A stretch of 64,000 bases of DNA from Escherichia phage vB_EcoM_WFL6982, in sequence record MK373774.1; one strand, 5' to 3'. The notes under the pieces are model-generated. The model did not search any database, was not told where the DNA came from, and saw nothing but the letters and a program-made list of their open reading frames with translations. Position 1 is the first letter of the stretch; every line of letters begins with the position of its first letter. Shown piece by piece: positions 6,152-60,494 of this stretch. The position numbers were made by a program, and so were the translations under genes.

Positions 6152-6582
6152 TATTGTTCCTTAAAATGTGCTTTCAACATTTGATACAAAGACCATGCCT
6201 GGTCGTTATTTTCGATAGTAATCGTCATCACCGGAAATTCAGACAATTCATCAAGTTCACCATAATCTTGCTCTTCGGGCGCTTGATATGGATTTCCAAC
6301 TTCGTCAAAGAATTCTGCTTCATTCGTGGAGAGCCAGATAAAGTTTTCATCAAGAATATCACCGCCTGTTGCGTATCCAACCATGCCAGTAGATGTCACA
6401 AGTTTAGTAGGACGTCCAAGATGGTCAACATCTAATACTTTAAACGGTTCCATGCCAAGACGTCGTGCATAAATCCCATTATCAGTGTGGTCTTTAATAA
6501 ACTCTTCTTGGGCACGTTTATCTATGAACTGATACCATTTATTAACTTCAAATTTATTAGCCATTAGTAAGTTTCCTTCCAA
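6151..6582 (-). CDS. hypothetical protein
   Basis: 143-aa ORF, acidic C-terminus, co-directional packing. Confidence 0.55.
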
Positions 6583-6836
6583 TAAGTTGTACCGTTTTCA
6601 GTGATTTCACGGAAGATACCATAGATAGGCATTTCATCGCCGAGTTTTTCGTAAACGTAAACCACTTCGGTGTAGCATAAAAATTCAGTCCAGTTTTTCT
6701 GTACAACAACTAAATCAGGATTAAACAGAACATCTTCAAACTCATCGATGTTTGAATCAGTAGTTACGTTTTTAATGATTTGACGTTTCATAATATTCTC
6801 CTCTTGTTTTGATAGGTCTATAGTATCATAGACCAT
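6564..6836 (-). CDS. hypothetical protein
   Basis: 90-aa ORF. Confidence 0.5.
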
Positions 6837-6848
6837 AGTTGTTGTACA

Positions 6849-7373
6849 TCATTTTAGCAAAATAAAATCAACTTGTTCTGCCAATGAACGTCTAAACATT
6901 AATTGACAACTTCCGAGGATGAAATCAGGTGCTTCATAGACCGCGATGTAGTATCCTTTAGCTTTCAAGAGTTCAACATCCACCTGGTCATCAAACCATG
7001 CATAAACCGCGTCAACACTTTCAAATCCAAAATAGAACCCTTGAGCCCAATCTTCGTTCAATTCAAATGTGTGCTCAATTCTATAGTATCTTAAAATATT
7101 TTGTTCAAGGAGTTTGTCTTCATTTACTGTAGGACGATTAGGGACATTATAGTTGTCGCCGTGATGGTAGAAGTTACCTGAGAGTATTCCATGCTTATCA
7201 AGGAACTCCCATGTTTCTTCAGAGTTGTCGGTGCCTGACCAACCGTATGGCGAACGAGGTTCTTTATTCCAAGAGGTTTCCCAAATTCTGACGGCTTTAC
7301 CGTCTTCGATAGCAATTCCTGGTAATGATTCACGTTGAGTACAAAAACTACGTTCTACGCGGTAAACTAACAT
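6849..7373 (-). CDS. hypothetical protein
   Basis: 174-aa ORF with early promoter immediately upstream. Confidence 0.6.
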   Translation of the reverse strand: MLVYRVERSFCTQRESLPGIAIEDGKAVRIWETSWNKEPRSPYGWSGTDNSEETWEFLDKHGILSGNFYHHGDNYNVPNRPTVNEDKLLEQNILRYYRIEHTFELNEDWAQGFYFGFESVDAVYAWFDDQVDVELLKAKGYYIAVYEAPDFILGSCQLMFRRSLAEQVDFILLK

Positions 7374-7398
7374 ATTATTCTCCTCTGGTTGATGTGGT

Positions 7399-7427
7399 TA
7401 TAATATCAAAACCAGAGGAGAAGTAAA
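7399..7427 (-). promoter_or_regulatory. T4-type early promoter
   Basis: minus strand GTTTAC-17nt-TATTAT, about 25 nt upstream of ORF start 7373. Confidence 0.6.
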
Positions 7428-7432
7428 CAACT

Positions 7433-7852
7433 TTATGCAAAAGATGCTGGACAATATTTTTTGATTTGGAACTCAGGAACTACCATGAACTGTCCAGCGA
7501 AAACGATGTTATAAAGCTTAGCACCATCTTCAACCCATTGGTCACTAATGAAGCCGGCGATTTGCTTAGTTTTCCATGGCGTTCCATCAGTTGCCGCAGC
7601 AATAGTAAATTCATGGTCTTTTACAACTAAAACAGACCTGCACAGTTTCCATTTGAACGCACGTTCTTCTGGCTCAATGAACTGGCTTGAGACGTAGCCA
7701 ATATTACCATTAGCGTCACGAACTTTAACTTCGTTACGTCCAAAAACCGGATCACTCACAGAAAGAACTTCAACCAACTTCCCGGCAACTTTAGAGCGAG
7801 AAGCAACAGATACATATACGTAATCACCTGTAGAGAGATTTACAATATTCAT
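7433..7852 (-). CDS. hypothetical protein, member of 3-gene tandem paralog family
   Basis: 139 aa; shares N-terminal (SRSKxAGKLVEV) and C-terminal (GFISDQWVEDGxKLYNIVF) blocks with the two following ORFs. Confidence 0.6.
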   Translation of the reverse strand: MNIVNLSTGDYVYVSVASRSKVAGKLVEVLSVSDPVFGRNEVKVRDANGNIGYVSSQFIEPEERAFKWKLCRSVLVVKDHEFTIAAATDGTPWKTKQIAGFISDQWVEDGAKLYNIVFAGQFMVVPEFQIKKYCPASFA

Positions 7853-7861
7853 AATAATTCC

Positions 7862-8347
7862 TTAAGCTTTACGAGGAGACACATAGCGAGTGATTTCAGA
7901 TTCTTTAACAACTCGGAAGTCACCTAAGAATACGATATTGTATAACTTTTCACCATCTTCGACCCATTGGTCGCTAATGAAGCCACACATAGTATCAGTT
8001 TTGCTTGGATAACCGTATTCATCGATGAAGTCAAATTCTTTATCAGTCTGGAATTCAACACCTTTACACAAGGCCCATTTGAACTGTACATTAGGCTCTG
8101 TGGATTCAACTTTTTCTCTTGAAGCAAAAGCACTACTCGCAGGAGTTTCCAAGAACTTTGCACGAACATAAGCGAACTGAGTTTCCCTCGACCCAAGACT
8201 AGGAATAATACGAACTTTTACCTCAGAATCTTCATCTTTAACGCCTTCTTTAAGTTGAATACTTACAACTTCGACCAATTTTCCTGCTGCTTTAGAACGA
8301 GATTTGTTAGATACGCGAACGATTTCACCAATAATACCAAGATTCAT
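7862..8347 (-). CDS. hypothetical protein, member of 3-gene tandem paralog family
   Basis: 161 aa; conserved blocks shared with 7433..7852 and 8409..8903. Confidence 0.6.
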   Translation of the reverse strand: MNLGIIGEIVRVSNKSRSKAAGKLVEVVSIQLKEGVKDEDSEVKVRIIPSLGSRETQFAYVRAKFLETPASSAFASREKVESTEPNVQFKWALCKGVEFQTDKEFDFIDEYGYPSKTDTMCGFISDQWVEDGEKLYNIVFLGDFRVVKESEITRYVSPRKA

Positions 8348-8376
8348 AATTTTCTCTCTTTGTTTAAGTTGAATTC

Positions 8377-8406
8377 ATTATACTCCATCCATCCTTGGAT
8401 GTAAAA
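8377..8406 (-). promoter_or_regulatory. early promoter with palindromic spacer (variant copy)
   Basis: (G)TTTTAC - CATCCAAGGATGGATGG - AGTATAAT; palindrome CATCCA/TGGATG inside spacer. Confidence 0.55.
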
Positions 8407-8408
8407 CG

Positions 8409-8903
8409 TTAATTAAGAATATTAACTACTGCACTACGTGGAACAACACTAAAATCACCAGCATGAACAACATTAATAAGTTCAACACCATCTTCAATCC
8501 ACTGATCAGTTACCCATCCACTCACTGGACCTGCGAATGGACGTCGAATTGAAACAGCTTTACACAACAAATCAGTAGGCTCAATAGGCTTAATCAGAGT
8601 ACCGTACATACAAGCGATATCCATATCAATACAGATGTCTTTAACGGGTTCTACTTCTTCAATCAACAGTTCAAAGTCAGTGCTTGGAACGGCGGTAGTA
8701 GAAATTGTACCTTGTGAATTTTTAATTTCTAAGAATAACCAAGGGCCTTCAGCTTGTTTGATGAAGTTAACAATAGTGAAACTATTACCTTGAGTGGCAC
8801 CTAAAATTTCACAAAACTTTTCATAAGCTCGCACTGAAGCACCGTACCAGTTGATTTGTTTTTCGTCTTTCAGGATGTAAGTAGCCGTAGTATTGATATT
8901 CAT
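8409..8903 (-). CDS. hypothetical protein, divergent member of tandem paralog family
   Basis: 164 aa; C-terminal GWVTDQWIEDGVELINVVHAGDFSVV matches family motif. Confidence 0.55.
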   Translation of the reverse strand: MNINTTATYILKDEKQINWYGASVRAYEKFCEILGATQGNSFTIVNFIKQAEGPWLFLEIKNSQGTISTTAVPSTDFELLIEEVEPVKDICIDMDIACMYGTLIKPIEPTDLLCKAVSIRRPFAGPVSGWVTDQWIEDGVELINVVHAGDFSVVPRSAVVNILN

Positions 8904-8934
8904 AATGTTTTTCCTGTTTGGTTAAGATAGAAAG

Positions 8935-8964
8935 ATTATACTCCAACCATCCTTGGTTGTAAAC
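8935..8964 (-). promoter_or_regulatory. early promoter with palindromic spacer
   Basis: GTTTAC - AACCAAGGATGGTTGG - AGTATAAT; 27-nt core identical to copy at 51116..51147. Confidence 0.6.
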
Positions 8965-8969
8965 TGATT

Positions 8970-9647
8970 TTATCGCTGTTTTACACTTAACGGGTCAGGA
9001 TTCTCAGGGACATCTTCAAGGCCAAGCGCATAACGCTGAGCATATTTTAACATCAAAATATCTTTAGCACAATCATGAATACTATCATGGGCAACGAATC
9101 CTTTTAGCGTACCCATCGGTAATGGACACATACTTAATCCTCGTGTCAACGAGTAAGCTTCGATTGCCGTACGAATATCGCGTTGAGCCCAGAATTTAAC
9201 CGGTTCTAATTTATCAGTATCAATATCTGGTTCAAGAACACCTTCATCACGATAGAGGTCACGAATCAAATCGACCAAGATCGGGAAGTCAAAGCTCATA
9301 CCACGGCACCACATCTGTGATTTCCATTGGTCAACTTTATTAGCTCGACAATAATCTAAAAAGATTTTAATGCCTTCAAGCGTAGTGACATCGTCTTCAG
9401 ACGGGGCCAAGTTTTTACGTGCTTCAGCCGATTGCTCTTTCCACCATTTCATAGTGGATTTAGCGAAAACTCGCTTCCCTTTTTGAGAAGCTAAATTAAA
9501 TTTAATTCGCTTACCTCGTTGAACAAGTTCTTCAAATGATTCAACAACTTCAGGGTCGGAATTATATGCAATAACCGCAAGGTCAATAACAGCCGCTTTT
9601 GATGTATTGCCGAATGTTTCAAAATCTATAATAACATCAGTGCTCAT
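8970..9647 (-). CDS. dexA: exonuclease A (DEDDh 3'-5' exonuclease)
   Basis: 225 aa; matches T4 DexA sequence as recalled from memory (IDFET..AVIDLAVIA..GFVAHDSIHDCAKDILM). Confidence 0.9.
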   Translation of the reverse strand: MSTDVIIDFETFGNTSKAAVIDLAVIAYNSDPEVVESFEELVQRGKRIKFNLASQKGKRVFAKSTMKWWKEQSAEARKNLAPSEDDVTTLEGIKIFLDYCRANKVDQWKSQMWCRGMSFDFPILVDLIRDLYRDEGVLEPDIDTDKLEPVKFWAQRDIRTAIEAYSLTRGLSMCPLPMGTLKGFVAHDSIHDCAKDILMLKYAQRYALGLEDVPENPDPLSVKQR

Positions 9648-9656
9648 AATTTTCTC

Positions 9657-10970
9657 TCAAATAAAATGGACGTCAAAACGACCACGAGTCGTGCCGACAT
9701 ACAATAACTGTTTAGCTAATTCTGAATCAGCATAATGGATACACGGTGTATAAACAAAGGCCGTGTCAACAGACATACCCTGGGCCTTATGGAAGGTTGA
9801 TACTGGTAGTGCCTTCACCTTAGTGAACATACGTTTAGCATCCCAGAATTCGCTCCATGGAGCTTTACCGCCTTTATTCCAGAATTTGTATGTTTCTGCG
9901 GTCTTAGCCAAAAACAAATTGAATTTATAAAGCTCTTCTTCAGAAGAAATAACCTTTATATCTTCTCGGATATATTCTTCATCATCCCCATATGTTTCTA
10001 CTGTAAGATTCCAGTATCGTATCATATATTCACCTGAAACACCACGTGCTTTAACGAATGTAGACGTTTCTACAGCATCTCGAATACGAACGAATTGCCC
10101 ATTATTGAAAAGCATTTCAGTCATATTTTTGCCATCTAGCTTGTACGTCTTAGTAAACGGCTCTTGTAGAACAATGACTTCGTCTTTAATAAATGGTTTT
10201 TCTGTTTCAAGAAGTTTTCGGCGAATAATTGAATTTAACTTGTCCACCGACTTATTTGTGAATGCCATCATTCGATTTTCGAAAAGGTCTTCAGGAGTTT
10301 TAACGACGTTAAAATAGTTCATCATATACGATTTAAGGTCTGTATATCCGTGAACACCGTGTCCATCAACTACTTTATCGTAAATCCATTTGCCATTACG
10401 AATATCAGTCGCAACATCAATAATTGGTGCATTGCTACGTTTAACTTCTGTAAGGTTGCATTGCACGAAGTCTTTGTGAGTGAAGAAAGGACTTAGATAC
10501 GCAGTTGATTCGCCTGGGTCTACCGGTCGAATCTGGCATCGGTCGCCGATTCCAATTACTGTACACCATTTAGGGATACTAGCTAACATTATTTTAAACA
10601 GAGAACGGTCGCACATTGACGCTTCATCAAATAGCAGTACACGACACAAGGCTAAGTCGGGAACCTTTTTCTGTTCAAACAATACGTTTTCTTCGTATGT
10701 AGTTGGGTTGATTTTAAGAATGCTATGAATAGTCGATGCTTCTTGACCCGCAAGTTTGCTTAGAACCTTTTTAGCAGCATGTGTAGGGGCTGCTAAAATA
10801 ATACCTGATTCTCCTGAAGAAATAAGAGCTTCAACAATAAATCTAGTAAGGGTTGTTTTACCTGTACCAGCCGGTCCATTAATAGTTACATGATGTTTCT
10901 TTTCTTTAATAGCTTCCATAACAACGTTGAAGGCGTTTTTCTGGCCTTCAGTCAAATCATCAAATGTCAT
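9657..10970 (-). CDS. dda: Dda DNA helicase (SF1B)
   Basis: 437 aa; Walker A GPAGTGKTT; near-colinear with T4 Dda as recalled from memory. Confidence 0.92.
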   Translation of the reverse strand: MTFDDLTEGQKNAFNVVMEAIKEKKHHVTINGPAGTGKTTLTRFIVEALISSGESGIILAAPTHAAKKVLSKLAGQEASTIHSILKINPTTYEENVLFEQKKVPDLALCRVLLFDEASMCDRSLFKIMLASIPKWCTVIGIGDRCQIRPVDPGESTAYLSPFFTHKDFVQCNLTEVKRSNAPIIDVATDIRNGKWIYDKVVDGHGVHGYTDLKSYMMNYFNVVKTPEDLFENRMMAFTNKSVDKLNSIIRRKLLETEKPFIKDEVIVLQEPFTKTYKLDGKNMTEMLFNNGQFVRIRDAVETSTFVKARGVSGEYMIRYWNLTVETYGDDEEYIREDIKVISSEEELYKFNLFLAKTAETYKFWNKGGKAPWSEFWDAKRMFTKVKALPVSTFHKAQGMSVDTAFVYTPCIHYADSELAKQLLYVGTTRGRFDVHFI

Positions 10971-45268: not shown

Positions 45269-47082
45269 TGGTGTTTAACCCTATGCATGATTTCTTTATT
45301 TTTACCGAGATTAAATCCGCGTTCGTTCGGATTTCCCAAATATCCGCATGTTCTTCTTATGGTGTTCATCTTTTTAGGATCAGTTTCTCCGCAAACTGAA
45401 CAAACAAATCCGTTTTCAGTAGGAGTCATTTCATGGGTACTTCCACATGTAAAACATTTATCTACTGGCATATTAACACCAAAATAATCTAAATGTTGTG
45501 CAGCATAATCCCAGACGGCCTCAAGTCCCTTTAAATTGTTTTTCATATCTGGAAGTTCAACATAAGAAATGTGACCGCCTGTCGCAATGAAATGATACGG
45601 CGCTTCACGAGAAATCTTTTCAAACGGAGTAATATTTTCTTCTACTGAAACATGGAAACTATTAGTGTACCAGCCTTTATCGGTAACATCTTTTACACTT
45701 CCATATTTTTCTGTATCGAGTTTACAGAAGCGATAACAAAGGTTTTCAGCAGGAGTAGAATACAAGCTAAAAGCAAATCCAGTTCTTTCGGTCCACTGTT
45801 TAAGATGAGCATTCATTTTAGTTAAAATTTCTTGCCCAATATCACGACCGACAAGAATATTCAATTCGTGAATACCAATGTATCCTAAAGACACTGAACT
45901 TCTACCGTTTTTAAATAACTCAATTATATCGTCATCAGGTTTAAGGCGAACCCCGAATGCACCTTCTTGGTAAAGAATAGGAGCAACAGTCGCTTTAACT
46001 CCTTTTAAGGAACTAATTCTACACATCAAAGCTTCAAAACACAGGTCCATTCGTTCGTTAAATAGCTCAACAAATTTCTGTTCATTGAACTGTGTTCCAA
46101 TATAAGAATCTAACGCAATACGAGGAAGATTCAGTGTTACAACACCAAGATTATTACGTCCATCAAGAATTTCATTACCAGTCGAATCTTTCCATACGCT
46201 CAAGAAACTACGGCAACCCATTGGAGAAACTGGAACTGAAGAACCGGTAATAGCTTTATTATTCTTAACCGAAATAATGTCAGGATACATTCTTTTGCTT
46301 GCACATTCTAACGCAAGTTGTTTAATATCATAGTTTGGATCATCTTTATAAAGATTAACACCTTCTTCAACAAACATAACAAGTTTAGGAAAAATAGGAG
46401 TTATTCCATCACGACCAAGACCTTTAATGCGGTTTTTAAGAATTGCCTTCTGAATCATTCGTTCAGTCCAGTCAGTTCCCGTACCAAATGTAATTGTTAC
46501 AAAAGGCGTTTGTCCGTTTGAACTAAAGAGAGTATTTACTTCGTATTCATAAGCTTGGAATGCGTCATAGACATCTTTTTCTGTTTTAGATTGAGCATAA
46601 TTCAACGCATCAGCGATTTGCCATTTTTCTGCATCTTCAACATGTTTAGCGTATGTGCGTTTAACATAAGGAGAAAGAACTTTATCTACATTCGCAAATG
46701 TAGTTCCGCCATACTGGTGTGAAGCAACTTGTGCGGTAATTTGTGCCATAATTGCAGTAGCAACACCAATAGATTTAGGCGTTTCAATTTGAGCATTGCC
46801 TAATTTAAATCCATTCTCAAGCATCCCCTTTAAATCGACTAAACAGCAATTGGTAAACGGAAGAGCAGGAGAATAATCAATATCATGCATGTGAATGATT
46901 CCGCTTTCATGCGCATTCATAATAAAAGACGGGACCATATTTTTGGCAATGTGTTTAGACACAATACCAGCCATAAGGTCCCGTTGAGTTGGAAAAACAC
47001 GAGAATCTTTATTAGCATTCTCGTTCAAAAGATCTTTATTAGTTTTATAAATTAATCCTTCAATTTCTTTTTCAATTTTCAT
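45265..47082 (-). CDS. nrdD: anaerobic ribonucleoside-triphosphate reductase (glycyl radical enzyme), no intron
   Basis: 605 aa; C-terminal Zn site CxxC..CxxC and glycyl-radical motif RTCGYLG; continuous ORF. Confidence 0.95.
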   Translation of the reverse strand: MKIEKEIEGLIYKTNKDLLNENANKDSRVFPTQRDLMAGIVSKHIAKNMVPSFIMNAHESGIIHMHDIDYSPALPFTNCCLVDLKGMLENGFKLGNAQIETPKSIGVATAIMAQITAQVASHQYGGTTFANVDKVLSPYVKRTYAKHVEDAEKWQIADALNYAQSKTEKDVYDAFQAYEYEVNTLFSSNGQTPFVTITFGTGTDWTERMIQKAILKNRIKGLGRDGITPIFPKLVMFVEEGVNLYKDDPNYDIKQLALECASKRMYPDIISVKNNKAITGSSVPVSPMGCRSFLSVWKDSTGNEILDGRNNLGVVTLNLPRIALDSYIGTQFNEQKFVELFNERMDLCFEALMCRISSLKGVKATVAPILYQEGAFGVRLKPDDDIIELFKNGRSSVSLGYIGIHELNILVGRDIGQEILTKMNAHLKQWTERTGFAFSLYSTPAENLCYRFCKLDTEKYGSVKDVTDKGWYTNSFHVSVEENITPFEKISREAPYHFIATGGHISYVELPDMKNNLKGLEAVWDYAAQHLDYFGVNMPVDKCFTCGSTHEMTPTENGFVCSVCGETDPKKMNTIRRTCGYLGNPNERGFNLGKNKEIMHRVKHQ

Positions 47083-49832: not shown

Positions 49833-50137
49833 TATAATGTTCTCTCAAATTTGTGGAAGCATTTACGGCATTTCAATTTCAAGTTATCAGTTGTCCAGTT
49901 AACCAGTTGGACTTGGATAGTTCCACATTCCGGGCATGGATGTTTTGCTGCCGATTTAGCAGCATTTTCACGTCGTTCAACCATTTTCATTATTTCGTTC
50001 CATGCCGGAGGAACAAACTCTTCTTCACCGTGGATTTTATCTCGCTGAACAAATTCAATCTTTGAACTATCGTCAATAAACTTAACCAAGCCATGATTAG
50101 TGCTCATATCAATATCCTCTAAAAGACGTAGTTTCAT
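49832..50137 (-). CDS. hypothetical zinc-ribbon protein
   Basis: 101 aa; CPECG ... CRKC. Confidence 0.5.
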   Translation of the reverse strand: MKLRLLEDIDMSTNHGLVKFIDDSSKIEFVQRDKIHGEEEFVPPAWNEIMKMVERRENAAKSAAKHPCPECGTIQVQLVNWTTDNLKLKCRKCFHKFERTL

Positions 50138-51087
50138 TATAACACCTCAATGGCATTTCGTAAACCATCCGCTTTCGCATTCAGAGCTTTTAACGATTTA
50201 GTTTGTTCTGCAATCTGGGCTTCGACTTCTTTCAGACGAGATTTGAGGTATTCACGTTCTTCAGCCATGATATCAACCTTTTCTGCTTTAGGTTCTTTAA
50301 TAAGCTTAGGTTTATACGTATTAGGGTTCTTCAGCTTAATTCGGGTACGAGAACTGTATAACATTGAACCGTTATCTTCGGATTCGTCGAACGTTTCAAC
50401 AACATCCATAGTCTCTAACAATGTAATAAGTTTATAAGACAATGAACGAACGGTTTTGTTATGCTTATTAATTTCTTCAGCTTTCATGGTACCGAGATTA
50501 CGTGAGTAGTAATAAGGAACCTGGATATCAATTGATAATGATGCGTTACCATTACCAGTTGGTTTGAATACTGCAGTAACCCAATCTTTAACATGAACTT
50601 TATTTGTACGACCATCACCGCCCGTGAATAATTTACGAGAATGTTTAAAAAGCATATTCACTTGGTTATTGAATTCACAAGCAAATTTATCAGCAAATTT
50701 AGTTTCAGGAATTGTAGATAACCAATCAGCCAAATGAGTCTTTTTAACATCGTTAATAATAGTGAATTCAACCAAATCAGTTTTAGATGTCACAGATTTA
50801 ATAAAGCTCGGTTTCATAAAGTTTTTAATGTTATCGCGAGCTACAGTAGAAGATAATAAACGAGAACGTTTGAACCATTGAAGCAACGTCCCTAATGAAT
50901 GAGAATATGCATTTTGAGTATCTTTACAGATATGATTTTCTTGGTCTGTGTATGTACCAAAATCGCGAAGAATACCACTTACTACATCTCGGTGTGGAAC
51001 ATCAAATCCTAGTGCGCCAGTAGCGCGCTGAGCATGAACGTTAGCGATAAGGCCGGCAAAGTATTCAATGTAATGTGAACGTGTCAT
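50137..51087 (-). CDS. hypothetical protein with C-terminal coiled coil
   Basis: 316-aa ORF; palindrome-bearing early promoter upstream. Confidence 0.6.
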   Translation of the reverse strand: MTRSHYIEYFAGLIANVHAQRATGALGFDVPHRDVVSGILRDFGTYTDQENHICKDTQNAYSHSLGTLLQWFKRSRLLSSTVARDNIKNFMKPSFIKSVTSKTDLVEFTIINDVKKTHLADWLSTIPETKFADKFACEFNNQVNMLFKHSRKLFTGGDGRTNKVHVKDWVTAVFKPTGNGNASLSIDIQVPYYYSRNLGTMKAEEINKHNKTVRSLSYKLITLLETMDVVETFDESEDNGSMLYSSRTRIKLKNPNTYKPKLIKEPKAEKVDIMAEEREYLKSRLKEVEAQIAEQTKSLKALNAKADGLRNAIEVL

Positions 51088-51115: not shown

Positions 51116-51147
51116 ATTATACTCCAACCATCCTTGGTTGTACATCA
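51116..51147 (-). promoter_or_regulatory. early promoter with palindromic spacer (third copy)
   Basis: -35 variant TGTACA, spacer AACCAAGGATGGTTGG, -10 TATAAT. Confidence 0.5.
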
Positions 51148-52140
51148 TTCCTTAAGAAGTTTTACTACTTGAATAAGATTAGCTCGTTCTGTTTTATTTT
51201 TACCGTTTAAGCCTGCTAATCGTGAGATTTCATCGTCAGTCTGTTGAATAGTTACATTAAGTTCGTTAATCAAAGCTTCAAAGTATTTGATTTGCTCAGC
51301 ATGTTTTGATTCAAATTTCTGAACCGGAATAACGTCTTGGTTCAGTTCATCAATAAGGTCTTTAAGAGCATCTTCTTGGTTGATATCATATTCAACTTCT
51401 TTTATTTCTTCAACGAGCTCGTCTTTATATCTAACGTCTTTTAGTCCTGGAGCTGGTCCTGAAATCTCTTCTTTAAGAGTACAAACATACCCAATACGGT
51501 ATCCAACGCCGTCTCGCTTGATATCAACTTCGTCGATAAATCCACAATGTTTAAGTCCAGAGCCGATTATGTCAAAATATCCTTGACGTCGTCCTTCAAA
51601 CGTTACACGAACTACTAAGACAGTTTTACCTGCAACCTTTTGAAGCTCACATTTATAAAAGTCAGTTGAACCTGAATAACGTGGATGAGTTTTAAAGTTC
51701 ATCTGACGATCTAGGCCCATTTGTAAGCGTGCTGTTACGGCCATAAAACGTGTTTGGTTCTCGTTAAGATGAGCAACAATCCATTTCAAAGGCATTTTAC
51801 ACTGTTCACGGCCGAACAAATCAGTACGTCCTAAATTACGCAGGATATTGTTAGAGTTAATCATCGACAGAACGTTAAGTTTATTCAGCGCGCTGAAGAT
51901 TCCATCAGCCATTGATTTCCCATAACCTTTACACGCTTTAATAAGTGCTCGCGGCAGATTAGTATAGATTTCAGACGGCATATGAAAATCAAATTTACTA
52001 ACCAGTAATTGATGAACTTGGATAGCAATTTGTTCATAATTAAGTGCTCTGCGATCGTTATGGTCTTTAAACCACACTTTAATCTGTGAAGCACATAAAC
52101 CGTTAATTTCATGTTTTACCGCATCAGATGTAATGCTCAT
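51145..52140 (-). CDS. hypothetical protein with C-terminal coiled coil
   Basis: 331-aa ORF. Confidence 0.6.
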   Translation of the reverse strand: MSITSDAVKHEINGLCASQIKVWFKDHNDRRALNYEQIAIQVHQLLVSKFDFHMPSEIYTNLPRALIKACKGYGKSMADGIFSALNKLNVLSMINSNNILRNLGRTDLFGREQCKMPLKWIVAHLNENQTRFMAVTARLQMGLDRQMNFKTHPRYSGSTDFYKCELQKVAGKTVLVVRVTFEGRRQGYFDIIGSGLKHCGFIDEVDIKRDGVGYRIGYVCTLKEEISGPAPGLKDVRYKDELVEEIKEVEYDINQEDALKDLIDELNQDVIPVQKFESKHAEQIKYFEALINELNVTIQQTDDEISRLAGLNGKNKTERANLIQVVKLLKE

Positions 52141-52757: not shown

Positions 52758-52786
52758 ATAATAACATAACCATAGACCTTGTAAAC
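52758..52786 (-). promoter_or_regulatory. T4-type early promoter
   Basis: GTTTAC-17nt-TATTAT. Confidence 0.6.
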
Positions 52787-59488: not shown

Positions 59489-60027
59489 TCTTTTATTTCC
59501 AGTAGTTTATTTGATTTAAGGTAATTAGCCTTTTCTAGGACTTCAGAAGCATATTTACTTCCGGCACTTGTCTTCCATCCCGCATTATATGAGGATATAG
59601 CTTTTCTTATATCCCCGTTATGTATATTTAACCAATAAGAAAATTCGATATAAGCCCATCTGGCTGAATTAGACCGCTTAGATAGCATTTTCTTAATTTG
59701 GGCATCAGTCATATTATAACCAAGCTGGTTAATTCTTGCCCTCATTGTCGGTAGATAATTTTGGAACATTCCATACGCATGGTGACCTTTCTTATCTTTA
59801 AGATTAATACCGGCAGATGATTCCTGCCATAGTATTGCGGCCATTATGTATCCAAGTCCTTTCTTATGCATATTTTCATGCGTTTTAAATTTTCCATCCT
59901 TAGAAAACTGTTCCCCAAACTGATAAGCATAATTCAAGTTATCGAGTTGGACATTACTAAAAGTATGCTCGGAGCTATGTGCTGATAATGAAAGAGCAAA
60001 TAGACCAGCGAGTAGTGCTTTTCTCAT
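59485..60027 (-). CDS. lytic transglycosylase (SLT) domain protein with signal peptide
   Basis: 180 aa; signal peptide; QESS catalytic-Glu context and AYGMFQ, SxYNAG blocks. Confidence 0.6.
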   Translation of the reverse strand: MRKALLAGLFALSLSAHSSEHTFSNVQLDNLNYAYQFGEQFSKDGKFKTHENMHKKGLGYIMAAILWQESSAGINLKDKKGHHAYGMFQNYLPTMRARINQLGYNMTDAQIKKMLSKRSNSARWAYIEFSYWLNIHNGDIRKAISSYNAGWKTSAGSKYASEVLEKANYLKSNKLLEIKE

Positions 60028-60035
60028 GTTTACCT

Positions 60036-60494
60036 CTAGATTTTAATCACTGCTTTAGAAGCTTTTCCTGGTAGTCGTTTATTGTTAATAATAGCCATTC
60101 TGCATTGAAGAGTCTTCATTTTGAATGCCGGATTTTCGCGACAAACTGTAAGTCCTAACCAAAGATTTCCGTCAGTTATTTCTAAACGGCCCGGGCGATA
60201 TTCGACACCTTCGACAAAATCTTCATCAACATCTGGACGTGCCGGCATTGATAAAAATTCTGCAACTTCTTTAACATGATTTTTTACTTTATGAAATAAT
60301 TCAAAAACGTAATTCTCATCTATTTCTCTCTGGATGGCACGATCTAAGAGATGTTGAGAATACTTGATATGAAAGCCTGGTAGTCCAAGAGACTTTGCAG
60401 CATCTTTTATACCGGCATTTATTTTGCGGAACTCCGTTTCAAAGATTCGACGGAGTTTATTACGGCGGATAAAAACGTCTGAATTGATAGTCAT
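60036..60494 (-). CDS. regB: RegB site-specific endoribonuclease
   Basis: 152 aa; position after vs/tk and partial recall of the T4 RegB N-terminus (MTIN..VFIRRNKLRR). Confidence 0.6.
   Translation of the reverse strand: MTINSDVFIRRNKLRRIFETEFRKINAGIKDAAKSLGLPGFHIKYSQHLLDRAIQREIDENYVFELFHKVKNHVKEVAEFLSMPARPDVDEDFVEGVEYRPGRLEITDGNLWLGLTVCRENPAFKMKTLQCRMAIINNKRLPGKASKAVIKI

Follow-up and report, generated by a model that had tools for sequence, protein, structure and literature searches.

Three copies of a 29-nt promoter cassette, whose spacer between the -35 and the -10 box encodes a short stem-loop, are found in a stretch of 64,000 nt from the Escherichia phage vB_EcoM_WFL6982 (MK373774.1), here referred to as the window. 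Comparison with related phages supports the view that the stem is kept paired by selection on pairing and not on the primary sequence. Genome comparison furthermore demonstrated that copies of the cassette recombine, since the genes nrdC.5 (in the window) and motB.1 (in phage JK42) are each missing exactly between two copies.

Copies and anatomy of the cassette

The window represents a Mosigvirus of the RB69 type and is a 100% match, with identical coordinates, to nt 1-64000 of phage vB_EcoM_WFK (MK373775.1). A search with the 27-nt core of the cassette, allowing up to three mismatches, found exactly three sites. These were 8935-8961 (copy 1) and 51116-51142 (copy 3) without mismatches and 8377-8403 (copy 2) with two mismatches. 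At the same threshold no match occurred in 100 shuffles. An earlier note on this DNA (the original prediction) had claimed three copies with an identical core in copies 1 and 3, which is confirmed by this search.

All genes near the three cassettes are located on the minus strand, on which the cassettes read T(T/G)TACA-N17-TATAAT. Copy 1 is TTTACA-ACCAAGGATGGTTGGAG-TATAAT, copy 2 is TTTACA-TCCAAGGATGGATGGAG-TATAAT and copy 3, with a weaker -35 box, is TGTACA-ACCAAGGATGGTTGGAG-TATAAT. Upstream of copies 1, 2 and 3 lie dexA, the motB.1-like gene and nrdC.6, respectively, and the -35 box begins 0-6 nt past the stop codon in each case. The similarity between copies reaches beyond the core in a mosaic manner (GAATT, TATCTTAAC).

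Copies 1 and 3 contain the palindrome CAACCA-AGGA-TGGTTG of 16 nt, composed of a 6-bp stem and a 4-nt centre; the arms of copy 2 are CATCCA/TGGATG. The first two bases of the palindrome are the last two of the -35 hexamer and the rest covers most of the spacer. The two differences of copy 2, A to T and T to A, fall on paired positions and retain complementarity. Thus, both arms have changed with the symmetry kept, as originally described.

The palindrome alone is not beyond chance. According to simulation, a random 23-nt spacer carries a perfect 6-bp stem with P = 0.012, and at least one such palindrome is expected in about 29% of sets of 28 promoters and in about 50% of sets of 57 promoters. 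Two random substitutions in the 27-mer lead to a paired symmetric change with P = 0.0057 (simulation), a single post-hoc event. Since the palindrome is not significant and the double change is a single event noticed afterwards, related sequences were needed to settle the question.

Covariation of the stem in related phages

Variants from Mosigvirus, JS98-type and T4-type phages were obtained from scans of public collections with the arms left free, from orthologous loci and from reference genomes (loci given here as L-numbers). The varying arm positions were unconstrained by the scans that supplied them. An arms-free scan of metagenomes yielded mostly unrelated sequences among the matches listed and added few true copies, and a search for loci with the nrdC.3 protein yielded 4 loci.

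Written as RNA, the arms CAACCA/UGGUUG are present in copies 1 and 3 and in RB69, and CAUCCA/UGGAUG in copy 2 and in the nrdC.4 promoter of JS98/IME08-type phages. Further variants were CAGCCA/UGGUUG with a G.U pair (L083), UAUCCA/UGGAUG with a U.G pair (LF82-1), CUUCCA/UGGAGG with both sides changed to U.G (L213, L232) and AGCCA/UGGCU with a G-C pair in the T4 nrdC.3 promoter and its relatives. An 8-bp stem, UUAUACCA/UGGUAUAA, was found in JS98-type phages. Within nt 1-52000 of T4, a 29-nt cassette TTTACTTT(G/A)CCACAAGGATGTGGTATAAT is located upstream of rIIA.1 (L375, ~2443) and of nrdC.4 (L251, ~50958), 48.5 kb apart. These two copies differ at one stem position only, A-U in rIIA.1 (UACCACA/UGUGGUA) versus G.U in nrdC.4 (UGCCACA/UGUGGUA). 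The same type of hairpin was additionally found downstream of dexA in L056, L060 and L061.

Across the variants, with stems of 5-8 bp, one stem pair was seen as A-U, U-A, G-C and G.U, a second as A-U, U.G, U-A and C-G and a third as C-G, U.G and A-U. The AAGGA formed by the loop and its closing base was invariant. In the 14 variants 91.7% of the cells were paired, compared with 67.4% in shuffles and 15-43% in slid registers, and the covariation score was 0.557 versus 0.119, reached by none of 500 shuffles; the alignment registers were chosen by the analyst. A conservative set of nine unambiguously alignable variants in the GGAGUAUAA register gave 90.7% versus 75.8% paired cells and a covariation score of 0.343 versus 0.080, again with 0/500 shuffles. 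The alignment across related phages proposed by the original prediction has thus brought further compensatory and wobble changes to light.

As a control, a permissive scan for TTTAM..AAGGATG..TATAA, dominated by chance matches, was used. It gave 121 matches that share the AAGGATG core, flanked by a -35-like and a -10-like box. A stem of at least 5 bp was present in 0 of 120 non-homologues, and the single exception was a true T4-type homologue.

Half-changed haplotypes, as expected if the arms diverged independently, were queried in approximately 250 phage genomes. Each was found once as an exact full-length match, in the recombinant JK42 and in JM10, and the independent arm divergence that would refute the original prediction is confined to these two rare cases. 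Breaks of the stem were also found: the outermost pair is lost in T4 nrdC.3, and L202, in which an interior C.A coincides with damage to the -10 box (TACAAA), looks like a decaying copy.

Several points weigh against a selected hairpin. The folding energy is modest, -6.6 to -8.2 kcal/mol, with z values from -0.5 to -2.2 that are not significant, and alternative pairings compete at copy 1 in a longer context. A recurrent T to C change results in an A.C loop-closing pair on the sense strand (RB69 copy 2, JS98-type, L006). Only a few of the evolutionary events are independent (~8 in the conservative set), and rows that share ancestry can exceed shuffles without any structure. Furthermore, two main haplotypes, in essence a single double event, account for the Mosigvirus data.

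The last point also favours a neutral history, in which one palindromic spacer was copied by duplication or recombination, the symmetric double change was unselected and the hairpin is functionless. The double change might then have come from gene conversion or from quasi-palindrome template switching, the mechanism of Ripley that was first shown in T4. In agreement with this explanation, about half of all sets of ~57 promoter spacers would by chance include a 6-bp palindrome, the copies demonstrably recombine and the folding energy is unremarkable. However, template switching gives perfect complements and leaves the G.U states of L083, L213, LF82-1 and T4 nrdC.4 unexplained. The same holds true for the invariant asymmetric loop, for the stems retained at decayed promoters and for the different stems around the same loop in T4 nrdC.3, nrdC.4, rIIA.1 and JS98-type phages. 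Chance AAGGATG matches never reach a 5-bp stem. We regard a neutral history as rather unlikely.

Evidence for a folded strand rather than an operator

The original prediction had left open whether selection acts on a dimeric operator site or on a hairpin. This claim is partly supported: the sequences speak for pairing and for the hairpin, by the compensatory and wobble changes in relatives, and not for the operator.

A dimeric repressor that binds duplex DNA overlapping the promoter, e.g. in order to switch off early transcription, would find in the perfect 6-4-6 palindrome over -35 box and spacer a classic operator position, and according to a review the mechanism of early-promoter shut-off is incompletely understood. 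However, conservation is inverted, as the arms are variable and the asymmetric AAGGA centre is invariant. The combination expected of an operator, i.e. conserved symmetric half-sites, a free centre and a fixed position in the promoter, was not found in the cassettes. The palindrome is present in only 3 of ~28 early-type promoters of the window, and a symmetric change in both half-sites is not predicted when one protein reads both alleles. Two arm alleles coexist within one genome, G.T states occur, and the position is shifted by 4 nt in the T4 nrdC.4/rIIA.1 versions. Here the hairpin is located closer to the -10 box, its 3' arm overlaps TGGTATAAT and its 5' arm has evolved to be complementary to TGGTATAAT. 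An operator is thus most improbable.

The hairpin is furthermore intact at the motB site of several Mosigviruses with a decayed -10 or -35 box (TATAGT, TATAGC, TATAAA, TGTATA). Variable arms around an invariant asymmetric centre, coexisting alleles, G.T states, the register shift and a stem that outlives its promoter together argue for selection on pairing in a single strand. As judged from these sequences, selection on the hairpin is at least partly independent of promoter function.

Promoter character

By sequence, the three cassettes are supported as sigma-70 T4-type early promoters. They are the best sigma-70 matches of their regions, copies 1 and 2 with 11 of 12 consensus positions and copy 3 with 10/12, and the spacing is 17 in each. 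The promoter call itself is not new. A list of 58 early promoters of RB69, predicted with a hidden Markov model (Nolan et al. 2006, PMC1524935), contains all four RB69 orthologues of the cassettes, namely Pe:8947 (score 27.2), Pe:51019 (27.8), Pe:52042 (18.2) and Pe:8387 (6.2). Pe:8947 is the orthologue of copy 1 and Pe:8387, which is degenerate (TGTACA...TATAAA), that of copy 2. The assignment of the cassettes as promoters in the original prediction is in agreement with this list. Its downstream genes, i.e. the motB.1-like gene and motB of the MotB cluster and the 316-aa gene nrdC.3, stand as predicted targets, and the -35 box of copy 3 is corrected to the weaker TGTACA.

In total, 28 early-type promoter matches were found in the window, and a stem of more than 4 bp was present only in the three cassettes. 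The other 25 matches mostly follow T(T/G)TAC...(A/G)TG(T/A)TA(T/C)TAT-AGACCTATCAAC with an extended -10 box. The cassettes form a distinct subclass with a perfect TATAAT after GGAG, without TGn and without the downstream AGACCTATCAAC box. The region of a possible UP element (-40 to -60) is A/T-rich, but it is coding sequence of the upstream gene. A middle promoter was rejected, since no MotA box (TGCTT) is present at -30 in any copy.

This subclass could suggest that the spacer tunes the promoter by its shape or by contact with RNA polymerase or with the alpha subunit in its ADP-ribosylated form, symmetry being incidental. According to a passage of a review, T4 early promoters do hold conserved information outside the -35 and -10 boxes. 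Tuning would select sequence or shape and not complementarity, yet the arms change and stay paired, and the hairpin survives degraded -10 and -35 boxes and sits in another register in T4. We consider this explanation very unlikely.

The AGACCTATCAAC box itself is conserved after the -10 box of ordinary early promoters, e.g. at 52785, 54262, 54542, 60550 and 20352, and is absent from the three cassettes. It partly represents the loop or the 3' side of structures that sequester the Shine-Dalgarno sequence (SD).

Strand of the hairpin and a possible role in RNA

The non-Watson-Crick cells of the cassette hairpin are uninformative with respect to the strand, a weak point of the RNA reading: there are 4 G.U and 7 mismatches on the sense strand versus 5 and 6 on the antisense strand. 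A second source of information is a sister cassette, the T4 motB promoter TTTACAAACTCTT[GGGACC]AGAGTATAAT[GGTCCC]GT-GGAGTATAAAATC (arms in brackets). It includes a proven RegB site, and its stem encloses the -10 box as a loop. This cassette was found in L026 (T4 6500-10500, motB.1-motB intergenic region), L011, L022 and L044-L053, with a second locus in L011 and L022. Its stem varies as GGGGTC/GACCCC (two compensated pairs, L048), GGGGCC/GGTCCC and GGGATC/GGTCCT. All cells (100%) are paired. The non-Watson-Crick cells number six, each of them a G.U on the sense strand, with 0 mismatches. The wobble pairs of the sister hairpin, as they stand in the sequences, fit sense-strand RNA only.

A terminator scan found no convincing terminators between the upstream early promoters (12104, 12845, 13482; 52785) and the cassettes, so read-through RNA should cross the cassettes. 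Spacers of ordinary early promoters appear to serve RNA structure already, since they form the 5' arm of structures that pair with the downstream SD in read-through RNA only, predicted at -17 to -24 kcal/mol. Long inverted repeats of the spacer with sequence past the -10 box were present at the minus-strand promoters with a -35 start at 7427, 13482, 20352, 42621, 52785, 60550 (regB's own promoter) and 63845. At 7427, 20352, 60550 and 63845 the partner is the SD region, e.g. UUCUCCUCUGGUU with AACCAGAGGAGAA. RNAs from an ordinary promoter itself and read-through RNAs should therefore differ in translatability and in the access of RegB to the GGAG of the SD, as far as the folding models go. Overall, little structure is predicted at the cassette junctions (-9 to -12 kcal/mol), and their downstream SD is not hidden.

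We propose the following mechanism. On the DNA, each site would act as a strong early sigma-70 promoter of the T4 type, placed right behind the upstream gene's stop codon. In the very short intergenic region the 17-bp spacer is the only part not fixed by the -35 box, the -10 box or the ribosome-binding site, and it encodes the stem. The hairpin would act as a folded single strand, most likely in read-through early mRNA from the upstream gene. Since the cassette's own transcript starts downstream of the -10 box and lacks the hairpin, the structure would be specific to read-through RNA. Here it may cap the 3' side of the upstream cistron and abut GGAGUAUAA(U/A). Only read-through transcripts would then be marked for processing at the cistron boundary, and the hairpin would be left at the 3' end of the upstream fragment, where its role may be protective. 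The repeated cassette of 27-53 nt is finally a substrate of homologous recombination, by which the gene between two copies is deleted or inserted. Of these elements, the promoter-quality sequence, the covariation of the stem and the indels are shown by the sequences, and the RNA nature of the folded strand, the RegB link and protection by the hairpin are inferred.

An action of the hairpin at the level of RNA in this broad sense is, in our opinion, moderately probable. For the whole composite of promoter, read-through hairpin and recombination we see the chances as even. More speculative, and rather doubtful at present, is the idea that the AGGA-loop hairpin is a dedicated RNA signal separating read-through from promoter-initiated copies of one and the same gene. 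The -10 box would double as a recognition site for RegB and S1, the hairpin would present GGA, as a natural counterpart to a structured RegB substrate known from SELEX, or cap the cleaved upstream fragment, and the 29 nt would combine promoter and processing site and spread as a mobile module.

The whole window gave no Rfam match at the gathering score. The literature searched, including searches by sequence strings, yielded no description of the hairpin and no transcript-end map of T4 or RB69 covering the cassette sites.

Similarity to RegB/S1 sites

Beyond the original prediction, the stem is directly followed on its 3' side by GGAGUAUAAU, which resembles a site for RegB, a sequence-specific endoribonuclease, and is identical at 9/11 positions to the minimal T4 motB RegB/S1 substrate GGAGUAUAAAA. 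The leader of T4 motB is a model RegB/S1 substrate with an efficient cut in vivo, and the minimal in vitro substrate ends in GGAGUAUAAAA (Durand et al. 2006, PMC1702504). Copy 2 is the positional orthologue of the T4 motB promoter and RegB site. RB69 copy 2 and T4 nrdC.3 carry GGAGUAUAAAU, which shares 10/11 positions with GGAGUAUAAAA. In T4 the 11-mer is located 2 nt past the sister hairpin, and both the T4 11-mer and the sequence downstream of it can be aligned with RB69 copy 2 (GGAGTATAAATCTTAACAACAAAGAGAG). The intergenic sense-strand GGAGUAUAA sites in the sampled phages are each found 0-2 nt past the end of a hairpin.

In all three copies GGA is followed by G at position 4 on the minus strand. 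The first G of the GGAG element is paired in the stem and the other 10 nt of the 11-mer are predicted to be mostly unpaired; the element is located between genes, and the window encodes regB. The element should be contained in early read-through RNA, because no convincing terminators were found upstream.

At consensus positions 5-11, UAUAAUG/C matches RAYARAA at 4/7 positions, or 5/7 if U5 is accepted as in motB, with no C at positions 5, 6 and 9. The following observations speak against a RegB site. The window sites carry U and G/C at positions 10 and 11, for which A is the strongly preferred base. Ranked against GGAGRAYARAA the cassette sites are in the middle, and the top-ranked sites are SD sequences. 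RegB/S1 cleavage in vitro does not depend on any sequence 5' of GGAG (PMC1702504). The T4 nrdC.4/rIIA.1 and the 8-bp JS98 versions have a hairpin without a following GGAG. Finally, 2 of 30 tested intergenic GGAU sites of T4 were cut, which argues against cleavage in the GGAU loop. Altogether, a RegB link of the cassettes can be proposed only tentatively from these sequences.

Recombination between cassette copies

In RB69 and phiE142 the gene order is nrdC.6-[cassette]-nrdC.5-[cassette]-nrdC.3. In the window only one cassette, a hybrid, is found between nrdC.6 and nrdC.3, and nrdC.5 is absent. Over 53 nt the window can be aligned with either of the two phiE142 copies, spaced by 1,022 bp, and by this alignment copy 3 is a hybrid of the two copies flanking nrdC.5 in RB69 and phiE142. 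No paralogy between nrdC.3 and nrdC.6 was detectable (E = 5.8), so copy 3 is not simply part of a duplicated gene unit.

In JK42, dexA is followed by a single chimeric cassette, its left half from copy 1 and its right half and flank from copy 2, and motB.1 is absent. The crossover is located inside CCAAGGATGG and created the half-changed palindrome AACC...GGAT. JM10 shows the reciprocal half-change at copy 1 without a deletion, i.e. a point change or a short conversion tract. Indels bounded by the cassette account for the patchy presence of motB.1 and nrdC.5 in RB69-like phages, and the cassette as a recombination substrate flanking gene indels goes beyond the original prediction.

According to a published study, the read ends of virion DNA of phage IME08 have the consensus TTGGA|G at sites that are found genome-wide, mostly without a hairpin. 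One of its top-20 sites, at position 46215, is located inside the cassette copy of IME08 (gatggatGGA|Gtataat). The main allele of the window contains a perfect TTGGAG at 8941-8946 and 51122-51127 on the minus strand. By analogy, TTGGAG could tie the cassette to DNA ends and to end-driven recombination.

These observations are in favour of folded single-stranded DNA instead of RNA: a hairpin formed during replication, recombination or packaging, which together with TTGGAG would mark a preferred DNA break or end and promote recombination between copies. Covariation is blind to strand and nucleic-acid type, the TTGGA|G end of IME08 lies in a cassette and the cassettes flank indels. However, the TTGGA|G ends are spread over the whole IME08 genome, mostly hairpin-free, and the T4 nrdC.4/rIIA.1 versions are without TTGGAG. 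Arms of six bp are short for extrusion from a duplex, the wobbles of the sister hairpin fit only sense-strand RNA, and passages in Arbiol et al. (PMC2839356) describe T4 recombination as needing short homology only and no special structure. A DNA structure is thus an unlikely explanation.

Comparison with known systems

The cassettes largely resemble the PeSL (promoter-early stem-loop) cassettes of T4-like phages (Arbiol et al. 2010, PMC2839356; Comeau et al. 2014, PMC4122927). Both are repeated intergenic elements that combine an early sigma-70-type promoter with a stem-loop and finish with the start codon of a non-essential gene and its SD. Both are located in plastic regions (here the motB and nrdC clusters), and their copies flank gene indels made by recombination (nrdC.5, motB.1). 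The PeSL promoter consensus of PST and T4, TTTACW-N17-TAYWAT, fits the cassettes as well. In contrast, the PeSL stem-loop is found just upstream of an AT-rich region and the -35 box, whereas that of the cassettes is located in the -35/-10 spacer with the -35 box abutting the upstream stop. The PeSL stem-loop is a terminator (GC-rich in RB49 and phi1; AGNA-loop-TCNT in PST), whereas the cassettes have no U tract, an invariant AGGA loop and an adjoining GGAG element. They were not called by the terminator scan; their stem is predicted at ~-7 kcal/mol, and a GC-rich stem with a U run is missing. To judge from sequence, the element works like PeSL but lacks two defining features, the stem-loop upstream of the promoter and the terminator character.

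With T4-type early promoters, described by GTTTAC at -36 to -31, TATAAT, an UP element and TGn (Nolan et al. 2006, PMC1524935; Hinton 2010, PMC2988021), the cassettes share the boxes, the 17-bp spacing and the position between a stop codon and the next gene. They differ by GGAG instead of TGn and by a self-contained spacer hairpin instead of pairing between spacer and SD.

The T4 motB RegB/S1 site is similar in several respects: GGAGUAUAA is shared with GGAGUAUAAAA, the position is orthologous and intergenic, a hairpin is located 0-2 nt upstream and regB is present. The transcript of motB itself carries the T4 site in its leader, past a separate -10 box, whereas the window element is the -10 box itself, so that only read-through RNA would contain it; its cleavage would be expected from resemblance only. 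Published primer-extension stops mark this T4 motB promoter as active in vivo.

A structured S1-independent RegB substrate was derived by SELEX (Lebars et al. 2001). In the summaries given in PMC1702504 and PMC3014915, its GGA is unpaired in the loop and its fourth nucleotide is paired. The A-GGA-U geometry of the cassette hairpin, with GGA unpaired and the fourth base paired, bears a resemblance only to the substrate so summarised, and the fourth base is U (C in some variants) and not G.

In T4 gene e and its relatives, promoter-embedded hairpins hide the ribosome-binding site in read-through transcripts (review PMC3014915). Here as in the cassettes, and as is the norm for other early promoters of the window, the promoter lies within sequence that folds only in transcripts started upstream. 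However, the cassette hairpin is confined to 16 nt and does not mask the downstream SD.

T4-type phages serve as the model of how early genes are controlled, of RegB processing and of modular genome shuffling, and the cassette links all three. The sequence next to the hairpin resembles the best-studied RegB site, the repeated cassette demonstrably mediates gene loss and gain, and the free spacer is used for a conserved structure. If the proposed role in RNA is true, promoter and RNA-processing signals would be dual-coded in 29 nt, and the cassettes would provide a natural structured context for RegB, reported in the RegB literature as not findable by simple folding of natural substrates. If it is false, PeSL-type shuffling would still be extended to Mosigviruses with two clean examples.

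Features of the cassette regions

The coordinates of the cassettes, their elements and the neighbouring genes are given in Table 1.

Table 1. Cassette copies, their elements and genes in the window
Feature	Position	Strand	Remarks
Cassette copy 1	8935..8963	-	-35 TTTACA 8958-8963, 17-nt spacer, -10 TATAAT 8935-8940; 11/12 sigma-70 consensus; 6 nt past dexA stop; predicted to drive the motB.1-like gene
Copy 1 hairpin CAACCA-AGGA-UGGUUG	8944..8959	-	6 bp, AGGA loop; -6.9 kcal/mol; covariation; GGAG 8941-8944
Copy 1 RegB/S1-site-like 11-mer GGAGUAUAAUC	8934..8944	-	overlaps the -10 box; first G is the last stem base
Cassette copy 2	8377..8405	-	-35 TTTACA 8400-8405; -10 TATAAT 8377-8382; 3 nt past motB.1-like stop; predicted to drive motB
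Copy 2 hairpin CAUCCA-AGGA-UGGAUG	8386-8401	-	GGAG 8383-8386
Cassette copy 3	51116..51144	-	-35 TGTACA 51139-51144; -10 TATAAT 51116-51121; directly past nrdC.6 stop; predicted to drive nrdC.3
Copy 3 hairpin	51125-51140	-	GGAG 51122-51125
Mini-ORF regions (rejected)	8947-8961, 8389-8403, 51128-51142	-	see text
dexA (exonuclease A)	8970..9647	-	cistron upstream of copy 1; its read-through transcript would carry hairpin 1
motB.1-like gene	8409..8903	-	164 aa; MotB-family match in the C-terminal part; flanked by copies 1 and 2; deleted in JK42
motB	7862..8347	-	161 aa; PF17613 (E = 7.6e-54); downstream of copy 2
Further MotB paralogue	7433-7852
nrdC.3 orthologue	50137..51087	-	316 aa, no assigned function; downstream of copy 3
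nrdC.6 orthologue	51145..52140	-	331 aa; cistron upstream of copy 3
regB (endoribonuclease)	60039..60494	-	98.7% identical to RB69 RegB (tblastn); candidate trans-acting factor for GGAG

A mini open reading frame (ORF) of 4 codons, AUG-GUU/GAU-GGA-GUA-UAA, opens at the loop-closing U and ends in the -10 box. It was rejected, because the spacing between AGGA and AUG is zero and the AUG is lost in the T to C variants.

Within the MotB cluster, motB.1 seems to be undergoing decay or to carry a frameshift in some phages, besides its deletion in JK42. In RB69 (L027, 8376-8872) a 399-nt gene and a separate 90-nt ORF, RB69p012, are found versus the single 495-nt ORF of the window, and T4 motB.1 is also shorter with 360 nt.

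Hairpins with an AGGA loop are not generally enriched in the window (6 observed versus 3.7 expected). Two further AGGA-loop stems on the minus strand are probably coincidental. The first, AGUUUUCUA-AGGA-UGGAAAAUU at 59900, is located inside an ORF downstream of regB; the second, AAAUUGA-AGGA-UUAAUUU at 47059, is conserved in T4 and RB69.

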